IMG/VR virus record: IMGVR_UViG_2974674860_000001
Coordinates: 1 to 64,000 of that record
Source of the DNA: a virus
Taxonomy: Duplodnaviria; Caudoviricetes
Direction: 5' to 3' (one strand)
Length of the DNA stretch: 64,000 nucleotides
Shown one piece after another: positions 37,699 through 44,056 of the stretch (position 1 is its first letter; each line of letters opens with the position of its first letter). The translations under genes and the position numbers were made by a program. The notes beneath the pieces were generated by a model. The model had not been told where the DNA came from, did no database searches, and saw nothing but the letters and a program-made list of their open reading frames with translations.

Positions 37699-37899
37699 AT
37701 GAAGCACATCCCCCTGCGACCACCCACGCCCGGCGAGGCCATGTCCGCGGCGATCACGCTCATCCGCCTCGCTGAGTACGAGGGCAGCTACCAGAACGAG
37801 TCTCGCGAGTTCAGCGCGAAATACCTCGGCGAATGGGCTGACAACCGCCGGGCCGAGCTTCGAGACGAGGAGGCCGCCGGTGTCGACAACCACGCTTGA
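37699..37899 (+). CDS. hypothetical protein
   Basis: ORF overlapping the xseA start; start uncertain. Confidence 0.6.
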   Translation: MKHIPLRPPTPGEAMSAAITLIRLAEYEGSYQNESREFSAKYLGEWADNRRAELRDEEAAGVDNHA

Positions 37900-39199
37900 T
37901 ACCCCGATCCGCGTCAAGGAACTCAACACCAAGATCGGTGCCTGGATCTCCCGCCTCGGCCACATCCATGTCGAAGGCCAGGTCACCCAGATCAACCGGC
38001 GACCAGGCGCGCACACCGCATTCCTGACGCTCCGCGACCCCCAGGCGGCGGCCTCCGTGTCCGTCACTGCGTCGCCAGGGAAGATCCCGGCCGAACTCAC
38101 CGACGGCGACAGCGTCGTCGTCTTCGGCAAGCCATCGTTCTGGCAGGGCCGCGGCAACCTTTCCCTGCGTGCGAGCGAGATCCACCAGGTCGGCGAGGGT
38201 GACCTCCTGCGCCGCATCGCACTCTTCCGCCAATCGCTGGCCGGCGAGGGCGCACTGCGACCCGAGTTGAAGAAGCGCCTGCCGATGCTCCCACGCCGGA
38301 TCGGCCTCATCACCGGCGCAGAGTCCGCCGCCGAGCGTGACGTCCTGAGTGTCGCCAAGCAGCGATGGGCCGCCGCCGACTTCTGCGTCATCAACACCCC
38401 TGTCCAGGGCCCGTCGACGTCCCGCGAGGTTGCCCGAGCGATCAAGGCGCTCGACGACCAGGACGACATCGACGTCATCATCATCGCCCGCGGCGGTGGC
38501 AGCGTCGAAGACCTCCTGCCCTTCTCCAGTGAGCAGATCATCCGCGCAGTGATGATGTGCGAAACCCCGGTCATCTCTGCAATCGGCCACGAGCCCGACA
38601 ATCCGGTGCTCGACGACGTCGCCGACTTCCGTGCAGCCACCCCGACCGACGCCGCGAAGAACGTCGTCCCCGACGCCATGGTCGAGGTCGCCGGCCTACT
38701 CACCGTCGGCGAGTCCCTCGCCTCGGCATTCGCTCGCAACGTCGAGCGCGAGGTCACGGGACTGCATTCCATGGAAGCCCGAGTGAACGGGCTCGGCGGT
38801 CAGATCCTCGCCCGCGAACGATCCACCTTCAACGGCTGGCGCAGTCAGTTCGACCTGACCATGGCCCACTCACTCCAGTCGGAGCGGAACTCGCTCCTGT
38901 CGTTCTCCAATGCCATCCGCTACGCCAATCCCGGCTCGCGGATCGAGAACGAGTATGTGGCCATCGCAGCCCTTGGAGACCACCTCGAAGCAGTCTCTCC
39001 GAAGGCCGTCATGGAGCGCGGATTCGCGATCGTCACCAACGCACGAACGGGTGACGTGATCACCACTGGCAGTCAGATCTCCGGCGGCACAAGCCTGACC
39101 ATCACCTTCGCCGACGGCAGCACCAGGGACGTCATGGCACTCGCACTGCCCCACTCATCGGTGGGGATCAAACAACCCGAAGGGACCGAAGCACAGTGA
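37880..39199 (+). CDS. xseA: exodeoxyribonuclease VII large subunit
   Basis: N-terminal OB fold (HVEGQVTQ..FLTLRD), RRIGLITG, IARGGGSVEDLLPFS, VISAIGHEPD..ADFRAATPTDAA, PKAVMERGF. Confidence 0.95.
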   Translation: MSTTTLDTPIRVKELNTKIGAWISRLGHIHVEGQVTQINRRPGAHTAFLTLRDPQAAASVSVTASPGKIPAELTDGDSVVVFGKPSFWQGRGNLSLRASEIHQVGEGDLLRRIALFRQSLAGEGALRPELKKRLPMLPRRIGLITGAESAAERDVLSVAKQRWAAADFCVINTPVQGPSTSREVARAIKALDDQDDIDVIIIARGGGSVEDLLPFSSEQIIRAVMMCETPVISAIGHEPDNPVLDDVADFRAATPTDAAKNVVPDAMVEVAGLLTVGESLASAFARNVEREVTGLHSMEARVNGLGGQILARERSTFNGWRSQFDLTMAHSLQSERNSLLSFSNAIRYANPGSRIENEYVAIAALGDHLEAVSPKAVMERGFAIVTNARTGDVITTGSQISGGTSLTITFADGSTRDVMALALPHSSVGIKQPEGTEAQ

Positions 39200-39372: not shown

Positions 39373-39671
39373 CGGCCGCCCCAACCGGCCTGAACGTCGA
39401 AGAGGCTCGTCAGCGTCTCAACGACCTGGTCTTCAACCAGCTCGACATGCACACCGTCCTCGATGTCATTGTCGAGCACAAGCGGGCACTCGACGAGATC
39501 GAGCAACTGCGACTCAGCTCCAGGTCCCGAGCCCTCGACTATGAGGACACCGTCCAGCATCTGACCCGCAAGCTCGATGAGATTGCCGACATCAGCCGAA
39601 GTGCACGTGGGATGGACTCGTATGGCCGTGGCGTGCAGCTCAGTCGAATCGCAGAGCTGGCGACCGTATGA
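39369..39671 (+). CDS. hypothetical protein
   Basis: coupled ORF. Confidence 0.7.
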   Translation: MTAAPTGLNVEEARQRLNDLVFNQLDMHTVLDVIVEHKRALDEIEQLRLSSRSRALDYEDTVQHLTRKLDEIADISRSARGMDSYGRGVQLSRIAELATV

Positions 39672-40063
39672 AGCGCATCCTGATCACCGGCGGCCGCGAC
39701 TGGACCGACGTCACCCGAATCGGCTGGGCCCTCCGCGACCTCTGGATCGACTGGGGCGAGCCGACAGACGCAATCCTCGTTGAAGGCGAGTGTCCCCACG
39801 GCGGTGCAGACATCATCGCCCGCGACGTCTGGCTCAGCAGGGGGTACCCGGTAGAGCGTGTGCCCGCCAACTGGAAAGAACTCGGCAAGGCTGCGGGCCC
39901 GTACCGCAATCAGCTGATGGTGGACCGCGGCGCCGACATGTGCCTCGCCTTCCCGACCGCCAAGTCCCGCGGCACCTGGGACTGCGTTCGCCGAGCACGC
40001 GATGCCGGCATCCCCATTCGGATCTATCACGCCGACGGCACCTATGAAGAGGAGTACCCATGA
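39668..40063 (+). CDS. SLOG-family (DUF2493/YspA-like) protein
   Basis: RILITGGRDW...GGAD...AGPYRNQLM...SRGTWDC. Confidence 0.85.
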   Translation: MKRILITGGRDWTDVTRIGWALRDLWIDWGEPTDAILVEGECPHGGADIIARDVWLSRGYPVERVPANWKELGKAAGPYRNQLMVDRGADMCLAFPTAKSRGTWDCVRRARDAGIPIRIYHADGTYEEEYP

Positions 40064-41783: not shown

Positions 41784-41816
41784 GAAGGCCCCCCGTCATT
41801 GCGACGGGGGGCCTTC
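41784..41816. terminator. hairpin between the converging xseAB operon and tRNA-Lys
   Basis: perfect 14-bp stem GAAGGCCCCCCGTC/GACGGGGGGCCTTC. Confidence 0.85.
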
Positions 41817-41820
41817 TGCG

Positions 41821-42131
41821 TGCCCCCTCGGAGTTTCGATCTCCGCACCCGCGGATTAACTGTCCCACTTCGACTTTCGCCGCCGCAGTGCTCTGCGTTC
41901 GTGGTCTGGACTATCCCTTGACCGTAGGCTCGCGCCCGTAGGTCCGACCCGTCTAGTCTCTACACCTTCCGCCAGGCTGGCTGCCTGGCGACTTGGCTCG
42001 GGATTGCCAGCTGGCCGGGGCGGGCCAGGGGAGGGTTCCCCGAGTTTGAGTCGTGCCATCCGGTCGGTTTCCCGGCCGGCGCTCCTATTTGGTTGTGAAG
42101 TCCGCTGCTCTTCCGAATGAGCTAAGGGGGC
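41821..42131 (-). tRNA. tRNA-Lys(UUU) interrupted after U34 by a group I intron (exons 42131-42098 and 41859-41821)
   Basis: the spliced 73-mer has perfect stems: acceptor GCCCCCT/AGGGGGC, D GCTC/GAGC, anticodon GCGGA/TCCGC with loop CT-TTT-AA, T CGGAG/CTCCG; discriminator A73; no encoded CCA. Confidence 0.95.
41860..42097 (-). ncRNA. group I self-splicing intron, 238 nt, IC3/Azoarcus-like, no ORF
   Basis: P1 CUU/GAG with U.G at the splice site; P2 GAAA loop; P3 CGACUC/GGGUCG; P4 CUCGGG/CCCGAG; P6a; P7 GACUA/UAGUC (GUGUAGAGACUAGACGG ... AAGGGAUAGUCCAG); P9 GGC-GAAA-GUC; terminal omega-G. Confidence 0.95.
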
Positions 42132-42282
42132 GGGTCAGAGACTAGCAGGTGGGCGGCGGTGCGACCCAGCCGCGGCCCTCCTGCTCTAGCCCTCAGTTCA
42201 CGCACACCCACTTCGCGTATGCGGACTGTAAACGGACTCGGTTTCCGAAACCTGCGCTGAGCTGGGGTTTTATGGGGTGGCT

Positions 42283-42302
42283 CTGCGGATTAAAAGTCCG
42301 TA
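42283..42302 (-). other. probable attP core matching the anticodon arm of tRNA-Lys(UUU)
   Basis: minus strand TACGGACTTTTAATCCGCAG; 400 bp upstream of the integrase; no adjoining D- or T-arm. Confidence 0.75.
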
Positions 42303-42697
42303 GAATGGACCATGCACACGCTGCATCTTTGAGTCAAATGCGCAGGTCAGAGGCCATCATGTAGACTCAAGGTAGTCCAAGATCCCCCTTGGATAAACGG
42401 ACAGATAAACGGACTCGACGGACGGAGCCCCGCGATGCAGGTTCAGACCCACCTCAACCCCTCCACTCGTCGATGCCGGGCGACGGCGCTCGCCGCCGAC
42501 CGCGAGCCTGTGCTCGCTGGTGCCGATCGGCCCGACCTTCCGTCCTGGATTGCGCAGCCGGCGATTGTGCGTCAATGCGGAGGGCCCGCTGGACACTCGG
42601 GGGATCACGAATCTCACTGGAATGGGAAGCCGTTTCTCTGGCCCAATTCGAGCTACTGATTCCACTCACCTCAAGATTGCATTCAGGAGACTTAACA

Positions 42698-44056
42698 ATG
42701 GATGAAACGGGCACACGAGCGAAGCGCGGCAGCGGCGGTATTCGATACCGGGCCGACAAGGACATCTGGATCGCCAGTGAAACCGTCACGCTCAACGGGA
42801 AGAGGACGCGACTCGAAGCCACGGGCAAGACCGAGACGAAGGCCCGCGCTGCCATCGCGAAGAAGCGCAACGAGTTCATCCGCGGGAAGAAGAAGAAGGC
42901 GAGCCGAGGAACCGTCACGGAGTGGCTGAACAAGTTCACCGACGAGATCGCGATCCATGACATCCGGCCGGGCACGATGCGCTCGTACAAGAGCGTCATC
43001 AACAACCACATCATTCCGACGATCGGAGACAAGAAGCTGGCCACCCTGGAGCCCGCCGACGTGCGCACGATGCGCGACGAGATCATGCGTCGCTGTGAGG
43101 CCGCGGACAAGGCGGGAACATCCAAGCGCAAGGGTGCCGGGCCGAGCCGCGCTCGATACGCACAGACGGTCCTGTCGGTTGCGCTCGCGAGAGCCGTCCA
43201 GGATGAAGTGATTGATCGCAACGTGGCGAACAAGGAGTACGTGAAGAAGCTGCCCGCTCCCGACAAGGCAGTGGCCGCGCTCGATGCCGATCAGGCGAAG
43301 CGGTTCCTGCGCGATGTAGCCCGCAGCGAGGGCACCAACGCATCGCGGTGGGCGTTCGCGTTCCTGACGGGCGCACGGCAGGGCGAGATCCTCGGACTGG
43401 AGATCAACCGGCTCGACTTCACCTTCGACTCGTTGAAGCTCACCAAGCAGCTCCAGATCCTGCCGAACCGCCACGGCTGTGGTGAGCAGAATGAAGACGG
43501 GACATGGCCGTGCGGGAAGACCGCTCCCCGTGCGTGCAAAGACCGTGAGTTCGACATCTCGCCGACGTACGCCGAGCAGGTGAAGGTGCTCCACGGAAGC
43601 CTCGCCCTGGTCCCCACCAAGACGAAGATGTCGAAGCGCGACCTGCCGATGGTGGGGCCGTTGAAGAAGATCCTCCAGGCGCACCTGGAGGCCACGGCGC
43701 ATATGCCCAACCCGCACGGCCTGGTGTGGCGAAACGAGGACGGTTCGCCGCTGCAGCCGCGCAGTGACTTCGATACGTGGTCGGACGCTCTGACGAAGAG
43801 CGGCTTTGATCACATCAAGCTGCACTCGTCGAGGTCGAGCACGGCCAGCATCATGAGCGACATGGGAATCGATCGCGAGGTGATCGCGGAGATCCTTGGA
43901 CATACCAATCTGGAGACCACGGCTGGCTACGTTGCGGTGGGTGACAAGTTCCGGCGGGATGCGCTCGGAAAGGTCGGCGGTGCGCTGATGCTGGAGCTGT
44001 TCGGAGATGACGATGGTGACGACAACGCCCCGACGACAGAAGCCATCGGGGCGTGA
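42698..44056 (+). CDS. int: tyrosine integrase
   Basis: N-terminal arm-binding domain; GARQGE (R), KT, HSSR, LGHT, TAGY; RBS AGGAG before ATG42698. Confidence 0.95.
   Translation: MDETGTRAKRGSGGIRYRADKDIWIASETVTLNGKRTRLEATGKTETKARAAIAKKRNEFIRGKKKKASRGTVTEWLNKFTDEIAIHDIRPGTMRSYKSVINNHIIPTIGDKKLATLEPADVRTMRDEIMRRCEAADKAGTSKRKGAGPSRARYAQTVLSVALARAVQDEVIDRNVANKEYVKKLPAPDKAVAALDADQAKRFLRDVARSEGTNASRWAFAFLTGARQGEILGLEINRLDFTFDSLKLTKQLQILPNRHGCGEQNEDGTWPCGKTAPRACKDREFDISPTYAEQVKVLHGSLALVPTKTKMSKRDLPMVGPLKKILQAHLEATAHMPNPHGLVWRNEDGSPLQPRSDFDTWSDALTKSGFDHIKLHSSRSSTASIMSDMGIDREVIAEILGHTNLETTAGYVAVGDKFRRDALGKVGGALMLELFGDDDGDDNAPTTEAIGA

Follow-up and report, generated by a model that had tools for sequence, protein, structure and literature searches.

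The closest described counterparts of the locus examined here are phages with tRNA-dependent lysogeny, a strategy named by Guerrero-Bustamante and Hatfull (mBio 2024; PMC10865867), in which integration takes place at a short core within a host tRNA gene, no tRNA is rebuilt, and a phage tRNA of matching anticodon is needed for lysogens to be viable. Experimental proof exists for Fionnbharth (K4) and for cluster L phages, LeBron among them; BrutonGaster (tRNA-Lys-TTT), OneUp and Mollymur (tRNA-Ile2-CAT), Cain (K6), and Gaia (X) are listed as users, and M. smegmatis has a single tRNA-Lys(UUU) (PMC10865867). The DNA analyzed here, hereafter the window, is a stretch of 64,000 nucleotides (nt) from a Caudoviricetes virus (IMG/VR record IMGVR_UViG_2974674860_000001); these 64 kb open a 90,490-bp record that has a rating of complete and is in unintegrated form. 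We consider it likely that the window contains the module with which a temperate actinobacteriophage of 90.5 kb integrates, by tRNA-dependent lysogeny, at the host tRNA-Lys(UUU) gene, with a replacement tRNA that is split by a group I intron. A first-pass annotation of the window had read the locus as one that may cut a host tRNA-Lys gene and replace it with a phage copy; this reading is probably right, but the strategy is one already known.

An anticodon-arm core between paired arm repeats

The common core of the phage attachment site (attP) is a 21-bp segment (42283 to 42303, minus strand) identical to positions 25 to 45, the anticodon arm and its neighbors, of Mycobacteriales tRNA-Lys(UUU). 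The core of 20 bp given by the first-pass annotation is present, and the run of identity (42303 to 42283) is one base longer. Its 15-mer CGGACTTTTAATCCG occurs once in the window (42286 to 42300, minus strand), with 0 occurrences expected by chance. An 18-mer of the core, searched in a species-level genome collection, gave more than 120 exact matches, and 112 of the 121 examined are the anticodon arm of tRNA-Lys(UUU) in the context GAGC-TA...CAG-GTC, which confirms the origin first proposed for the core. The genera that carry the 18-mer are mostly Mycobacteriales and include Mycobacterium, Mycolicibacterium, Gordonia, Williamsia, Rhodococcus, Nocardia, Dietzia, and Corynebacterium. Between the commonest host tRNA-Lys(UUU) and the phage, 21 consecutive bases (25 to 45) are identical, and identity ends on both sides. 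Since the same calculation gives 17 bp for LeBron, 10 bp for Fionnbharth, and 11 bp for BrutonGaster, which are the published values, we regard the method of measuring core length as validated.

Read on the minus strand and leading away from the integrase gene, the locus presents two arm repeats, a TTTGAC motif, the core, and a third arm repeat with a degenerate copy. The P-arm (42392 to 42417, minus strand), found by a repeat search, consists of two tandem arm-type repeats (GTCCGTTTATC twice, at 42414 to 42392) preceded by CGA. The P′-arm (42216 to 42240, minus strand), found by repeat search and reading of the sequence, consists of the arm-type repeat CGAGTCCGTTTACA and the degenerate second copy GTCCGCATACG. 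The loci of the Gordonia relatives are built in the same way: the core lies equally far from the integrase gene and within the phage's own arm repeats, and is followed by a cognate tRNA and a hairpin. Cores at this position derive from tRNA-Lys or tRNA(CAU), and the paired arm repeats are equivalent but different in sequence (for example, GTCCGCCTA in BrutonGaster and CCCGCAAT in Bantam). The tRNA-Lys of BrutonGaster is present, though unannotated in its record. Directly upstream of the core, the motif TTTGAC-N12-GCAGCGTGTGCA (42313 to 42338, minus strand) was seen by eye, and Bantam, OneUp, BrutonGaster, and LeBron all have TTTGAC-N12-GCAGCGT(A/G)TGCA equally far from the core, despite their differing cores and arm repeats. 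This motif could be bound by the integrase or by an accessory protein, or it could be a −35 element.

The neighboring gene (42698 to 44056, plus strand) encodes a tyrosine integrase of 452 amino acids, which is of the lambda type with an N-terminal arm-binding region, as judged from Pfam and an alignment with relatives. It matches PF00589 (Phage_integrase, 5e-17) and PF14659 (SAM-like N-terminal domain, 1e-12), and R227, K308, H376, R379, H402, and Y411 are all present and invariant in the alignment, so the enzyme that had been placed beside the core is intact in both domain content and catalytic residues. The nearest integrases, at 51 to 54% identity, are those of the Gordonia terrae phages Bantam, Mollymur, BrutonGaster, and OneUp; the enzymes of the last two and of Mollymur belong to the integrase phamily of Fionnbharth and LeBron (PMC10865867). 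A megablast search of the integration module against a phage collection gave no match. All aligned relatives also have in common an insertion at residues ~259 to 280 with invariant H259, C261, C272, and C280 (HGCG...PCG...ACP), which looks like a small metal-binding motif.

Attachment sites within tRNA genes normally carry the rest of the gene, and the first-pass annotation had noted that no variable loop, T arm, or acceptor follows this core; indeed, ARAGORN finds no tRNA at that place. We simulated the crossover in silico with a bacterial site (attB) of the Mycolicibacterium tusciae type and called tRNAs with ARAGORN. The attB has a tRNA, attL has only the intron-bearing phage tRNA, attR has none, and no tRNA is rebuilt. 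The anatomy of the locus, its homologies, the conserved fold of the intron described below, and this outcome of simulated integration are observations. The mechanism that they suggest is as follows. Acting on the 21-bp core, the integrase would recombine attP with the host gene at the anticodon-arm segment that has the identical sequence, and the phage DNA past the core, having no tRNA 3′ half, would leave no working tRNA at either junction. The loss would be made good by the phage's only tRNA, a tRNA-Lys(UUU) 151 nt from the core with a promoter-like element and a terminator hairpin, but a 238-nt intron after U34 would have to splice itself out before that tRNA could work. The parts of the first-pass interpretation that concern attP anatomy, the lack of rebuilding after crossover, and the cognate phage tRNA thus stand; the part assigned in it to the host promoter proved unnecessary (see below).

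Similar cores were encountered outside tRNA genes in other genomes. The 20-bp tRNA-Lys(UUU) core is found on a 23-kb plasmid of Mycobacterium sp. M23085, outside any tRNA, with GGACCTA repeats at its flanks and then a tRNA-Lys(CUU)-like fragment; this core may be another such attP on a plasmid or phage-plasmid. Two Gordonia genomes have the tRNA(CAU) anticodon-loop core ACTCATAATCC outside any tRNA, and these copies may be junctions or attP sites of Bantam/OneUp-like elements. An attR-like partial tRNA-Lys in Mycolicibacterium canariasense was considered and rejected: it belongs to a canonical, rebuilding prophage, with the intact tRNA-Lys 53 kb from the 3′-half copy. Contig 9 of the same species carries a phage-like array of ten tRNAs, in which the anticodon stem of tRNA-Lys(UUU) is re-coded (CCGA/TCGG) relative to the chromosomal gene.

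The proposed replacement tRNA and its putative expression signals

With introns allowed, ARAGORN calls tRNA-Lys(ttt) at 42131 to 41821 on the minus strand, in agreement with the complete intron-containing tRNA-Lys(UUU) of the first-pass annotation; run without the intron option, it finds no tRNA in the window. Exon 1 (42098 to 42131, minus strand) comprises tRNA positions 1 to 34 and ends with U34, and exon 2 (41821 to 41859, minus strand) comprises positions 35 to 73. Joined, the exons make a 73-mer with the fold of a canonical tRNA-Lys(UUU), whose gene is the sole tRNA gene of the 90,490-bp genome. Core and tRNA lie exactly 151 nt apart, the distance first measured. A sharing of 16 bp between the spliced tRNA and the core had also been pointed out, together with its interruption by the intron; both were recovered, the 16-mer being CGGACTTTTAATCCGC and its pieces in the DNA 7 and 9 nt long. 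Over 73 positions, the spliced tRNA is identical to the tRNA-Lys-TTT of Fionnbharth at 63, to that of BrutonGaster at 60, and to one of the intron-bearing bacterial alleles described below at 53, and it shares with Fionnbharth the D loop and T arm. At T-loop position 54, exon 2 and the tRNA-Lys genes of Fionnbharth and BrutonGaster have A instead of T (GATCGA), which marks a phage tRNA lineage common to Mycobacterium and Gordonia phages.

Seven nucleotides before the tRNA 5′ end lies an extended −10-like element, TGcTAGTCT (TGnTAGTCT; 42139 to 42147, minus strand). Because a strict sigma-70 consensus scan found nothing, the promoter call rests on this element, which was seen by eye. Five related phages (BrutonGaster, Fionnbharth, LeBron, OneUp, and Bantam) have a TANNNT hexamer in the equivalent position before their tRNAs, and the fragment upstream of the Fionnbharth tRNA is a strong promoter by experiment (PMC10865867). 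We infer that TGcTAGTCT is the putative promoter of the phage tRNA itself. Given this element and the Fionnbharth precedent, the earlier suggestion that integration places the phage tRNA under the host tRNA promoter is not needed, although read-through from the host promoter into the phage tRNA is possible. Directly 3′ of the tRNA lies a G+C-rich, terminator-like hairpin of 14 bp without a U tract (41784 to 41816, minus strand), identified by folding. The strong hairpin that had been remarked on (41816 to 41784) folds at −42.8 kcal/mol (z = −7.1), and this stretch is 92 to 94% identical to that found 3′ of the tRNA in Bantam, DatBoi, and Mollymur.

A group I intron after U34

The intron (41860 to 42097, minus strand), called by ARAGORN and supported by covariation, is 238 nt long, lacks an open reading frame (ORF), begins after U34, and ends in G; its core is Azoarcus-like (IC3-type). 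A blastn search matches annotated group I introns. The J6/7-P7 sequence GGTGTAGAGACTAGACGG is common to the phage intron and many tRNA introns, and we take this string to be typical of Azoarcus-type tRNA introns. We tested the predicted fold (P1 to P9, the P3/P7 pseudoknot, and the four tRNA stems) on an alignment of 13 sequences, the phage intron and 12 bacterial homologues. Across 84 pairs in 18 helices, 98.4% of cells are standard pairs (n = 13), compared with 32 to 46% when partners are slid. Compensatory change is seen at 25 pairs, as opposed to 8.9 ± 2.0 in shuffles (0 of 500 reach 25) and 1 to 6 in the slid controls. P1 pairs the 5′ exon end with an internal guide, the 5′ splice site is U.G (columns 35/49) in 13 of 13 sequences, every intron has a terminal G, and the helices that define a group I core (P3 to P9, with the P3/P7 pseudoknot) are present. 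The phage intron has compensatory changes of its own in P3, P7, and P8, and its fold has therefore been maintained.

Intron relatives in bacteria and on viral contigs

We searched for the intron in about 800 Actinomycetes genomes (an order sample of 401 and a class sample of 401) and recovered 12 full-length homologues, 6 from each sample. All 12 split a chromosomal tRNA-Lys(UUU) after U34, the site used in the phage, and they are 217 to 232 nt long. One sampled genome that is flagged as unpublished matched at chance level only, and nothing stated here depends on it. The phage intron is 73 to 78% identical to the bacterial introns, which are 81 to 97% identical among themselves. Two of the split bacterial genes adjoin a tRNA-Glu-Asp-Phe cluster, the usual place of tRNA-Lys(UUU) in Mycolicibacterium chromosomes. 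In three of five intron-bearing genomes checked, the CTTTTAA heptamer is entirely absent and there are no att scars; the only tRNA-Lys(UUU) gene of these three is therefore the split one, and their AAA decoding seems to depend on splicing. Some Actinomycetes that have only a split tRNA-Lys(UUU) would accordingly be expected to have no attB of the kind proposed here.

The exon bases beside the phage intron (AGAGCAGCGGACTT / TTAATCCGCGGGT), including the A31-U39 pair, are the same as in most bacterial alleles. The simplest reading is that the intron entered a pre-existing phage tRNA together with a short co-converted tract. Because the family also splits chromosomal tRNA-Lys(UUU) in a few Actinomycetes and the exons are of the phage lineage, the phage intron was most likely acquired horizontally. 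No second phage with a split tRNA-Lys(UUU) emerged when IMG/VR was scanned with a 17-mer specific to the intron. Split tRNAs are frequent there: 87 of 120 contig matches to GGTGTAGAGACTAGACGG fall within tRNA genes, of which ARAGORN assigns 44 to tRNA-Leu(UAA) and the others to Met, Ser, Thr, Arg, Lys(CUU), and more isotypes. Some of these contigs may be host fragments. Within the fetched loci of the 87 split tRNAs, a search for an uninterrupted anticodon-arm core nearby gave only 4 trivial matches. Four prophage-sized IMG/VR contigs (42 to 44 kb) have a tRNA-Arg(CCU) split by a related group I intron of 235 to 237 nt.

An intronless allele in a sister phage

Contigs from two public sequencing runs were compared with the locus. 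One of them, 56,365 nt long (L289), carries a sister allele in which the flanks are ~98% identical to the window, the attP core and arm repeats are identical, and the integrase falls in the same 90%-identity cluster as that of the studied phage. Between joints at 41827/42175, the segment of promoter plus tRNA (347 nt; 41828 to 42174, minus strand) is replaced in the sister phage by 116 nt that hold an intronless tRNA-Lys(UUU), and this segment appears to behave as an exchangeable cassette. The sister tRNA is identical at 67 of 73 positions to the tRNA-Lys of several Mycolicibacterium/Mycobacterium species and of one Williamsia metagenome-assembled genome (MAG). All six differences from the host type (27, 29, 41, 43, 44, and 45) lie within the 21-bp core segment, and the sister tRNA shares 11 nt with the attP core. 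On this comparison, the sister tRNA is probably host derived with its anticodon stem re-coded. Another sample has the identical intron allele, and there the core, arms, and tRNA are 100% conserved, though the 5-kb aligned stretch differs by 2.3%.

Weighing the alternatives

Several points count against the view that the phage integrates at tRNA-Lys(UUU) and restores the lost function with a spliced tRNA. Searches with the integrase in genome contigs and in 401 Mycobacteriales genomes found no lysogen of the phage or of a close relative; as a single-protein query against the genome contigs, the integrase returned no relative, and the integrases of the 401 genomes are only 30 to 38% identical and adjoin tRNA 3′ halves of other isotypes, a level of similarity that does not inform on the attB of the studied phage. 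No RNA run with the locus was found among the sequencing runs, and a single raw-read run had no reads on the locus; the splicing of the intron is thus a prediction. The intron scores 15.4 bits with Rfam RF00028 against a threshold of 50, and the match covers only P3 to P6 and J6/7. The general Rfam group I model is, we believe, weak on small tRNA introns. A second host tRNA-Lys(UUU) gene, if present, would make the replacement non-essential. Finally, the core, at 21 bp, is longer than the 8 to 17 bp in the table of tRNA-dependent phages (PMC10865867). We infer the actual attB, the splicing, the need for the tRNA in lysogeny, and the direction in which the intron moved from the features described above, and a lysogen would depend on a ribozyme only where its host has just one tRNA-Lys(UUU) and the intron splices.

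In a contrary reading, the 21-bp match would be a relic or a coincidence of attP evolution, integration would take place elsewhere or lysogeny would have been lost, and the tRNA would serve lytic growth or counter a tRNA-cleaving defense. The lack of any recovered lysogen fits such an account, as do the proposal that phage tRNA-Lys(UUU) act as decoys for PrrC-type anticodon nucleases and the existence of relatives, such as Daredevil, that have lost the tRNA and are lytic (PMC10865867). We nonetheless hold it to be very improbable. The core is placed exactly as in the relatives, between paired arm repeats and beside an intact integrase; its 15-mer is expected 0 times by chance; and core, arms, and tRNA are 100% conserved in two samples that differ by 2.3% over 5 kb. 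Integration at the host tRNA-Lys(UUU) with replacement by the phage tRNA is therefore the reading that we retain.

Why the replacement tRNA contains an intron is a separate matter. The explanation toward which we lean, if only slightly, is that the intron is neutral or selfish: it would have entered an existing phage tRNA-Lys gene through recombination with, or transfer from, an intron-bearing actinobacterial tRNA-Lys(UUU) allele, with A31-U39 co-converted, and would persist because it splices adequately, any effect on att sites being a by-product. Consistent with this, the intron has no ORF and its family occupies always the same site in 12 of ~800 Actinomycetes genomes, the intron-adjacent exon bases match most bacterial alleles while the remaining exon is of the phage type, and, as the sister phage demonstrates, the cassette can be exchanged and the intron dispensed with. 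Furthermore, split tRNAs are frequent on viral contigs (87 of 120 motif matches), and an uninterrupted core lies nearby only in the 4 trivial cases. However, the intron is only 73 to 78% identical to the bacterial ones and no recent donor was identified, and this explanation does not account for why every intronless counterpart has lost core sequence.

That last fact is what an alternative in which the intron is selected for hiding the att core in the phage's own tRNA would explain, an idea that adds to tRNA-dependent integration and does not replace it. An intron-free gene would repeat 16 bp of the core, directly oriented and ~190 bp from attP, and this copy could act as a pseudo-attB, leading to deletion or to tandem or aberrant integration by the phage's own integrase, or to its use by other phages with tRNA-Lys as their target. 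Immediately after CTT, the 16-mer is interrupted by the intron and so falls into 7 and 9 nt, and CTT has been proposed as the overlap region for the Fionnbharth integrase (PMC10865867). Whereas the cores common to attP and host are 17, 10, 11, and 21 bp in LeBron, Fionnbharth, BrutonGaster, and the sister phage, their intronless tRNA-Lys share only 7, 7, 7, and 11 nt with their own attP. In the two host-like tRNAs, those of LeBron and the sister phage, 6 of 6 differences from the nearest host tRNA lie in positions 25 to 45 (point probability ~3e-4 each), and Fionnbharth and BrutonGaster have altered exactly the 31-39 pair. Use of a plasmid-borne phage tRNA as attB was raised as a speculation in PMC10865867, where the anticodon stem is not discussed. 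Other observations speak against the idea. With the same core and arms, the sister phage manages without an intron, and the 11 nt that its tRNA shares equal the whole length of the BrutonGaster core. Of the 11 bases common to attP and the Gordonia tRNA(CAU), 9 are retained in the intronless tRNA(CAU) of Bantam and 10 in that of OneUp; the Gordonia sequence was not found in the first MAG and comes from further genomes of that genus. Chromosomal tRNA-Lys genes with no att site nearby keep homologous introns, re-coding of the stem may instead reflect escape from anticodon nucleases (an idea in PMC10865867), and the phages compared are few and related. We therefore regard selection of the intron for concealment of the core as possible but doubtful. 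Equally tentative is the broader proposal that replacement tRNAs are selected against likeness to the att core and reach this end by three routes (a 31-39 swap in Fionnbharth and BrutonGaster, re-coding of the stem in LeBron and the sister phage, and splitting by an intron in the studied phage); by extension, small tRNA group I introns of bacteria and mobile elements may persist and spread in part by hiding their gene from integrases that act at the anticodon loop.

Other genes in the window

Two genes located before the integration module are recorded here for completeness. A full-length homologue of the exonuclease VII large subunit (Pfam Exonuc_VII_L, 7.5e-70) is encoded at 37880 to 39199 on the plus strand, and a YAcAr/SLOG-family protein is encoded at 39668 to 40063 on the same strand.

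Comparison with known systems

A review from 2014 placed all phage introns then known in protein genes (PMC3984707), and the tRNA group I introns listed in another of the same year were all from cyanobacteria, alpha- and betaproteobacteria, and plastids (PMC4033280). Our locus, its 12 actinobacterial homologues, and the split tRNAs of viral contigs suggest that both statements are now outdated, and intron-bearing tRNAs on viral contigs may be common but undescribed. Our literature searches turned up no description of an intron in the tRNA-Lys gene of a phage or in connection with tRNA-dependent lysogeny. What appears to be new here is the intron in a replacement tRNA, the introns of actinobacterial tRNA-Lys(UUU), and the intronless sister allele. 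If our reading is true, the life cycle of a temperate phage would require splicing by a ribozyme, and AAA decoding in the lysogen possibly would as well. The sister phage would serve as a natural control for asking whether tRNA introns shield genes from site-specific recombinases.

Set beside the small tRNA introns of bacteria and plastids (Azoarcus tRNA-Ile(CAU), cyanobacterial and plastid tRNA-Leu(UAA), cyanobacterial tRNA-fMet, and Agrobacterium tRNA-Arg(CCU)), the phage intron is alike in its length class of ~200 to 250 nt, in its lack of an ORF, and in its insertion in the anticodon loop. Insertion between positions 34 and 35 is also found in tRNA-Leu(UAA) introns. Likeness to the bacterial introns extends to the P1 to P9 core with its P3/P7 pseudoknot, to GAAA tetraloops on P2 and P9b, and to the U.G 5′ splice site and terminal G. 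The differences are that the gene here is tRNA-Lys(UUU), that the carriers are Actinomycetes and their phages, that the Rfam score is below threshold, and that splicing is predicted.

Canonical attP sites in tRNA genes (Boilgate K8, Ximenita K6, and Omega J; L5 type) resemble the studied one in the broad integrase family, in a crossover in or near the anticodon loop, and in their arm sites. Their identity with the host, however, runs 38 to 52 bp to the tRNA 3′ end so that the gene is rebuilt at attL, whereas in the studied phage identity stops at position 45. The tRNA-dependent phages are closer: they have related integrases, a core limited to the anticodon arm without a 3′ half, paired arms, and a phage tRNA of the same anticodon, and in the Gordonia phages of PMC10865867 the tRNA likewise lies directly beside attP. 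For the phages of that study, the strategy is in part established by experiment, whereas for ours both integration and tRNA dependence are predicted from sequence. The studied exons are identical at 63 of 73 positions to the tRNA that Fionnbharth requires for lysogeny, but the replacement tRNA contains a group I intron, and no intron is mentioned in that paper. Lastly, compared with intronless replacement tRNA-Lys, the spliced tRNA of the studied phage keeps a host-like anticodon stem and is identical to its attP over 16 nt rather than 7 to 11 nt.

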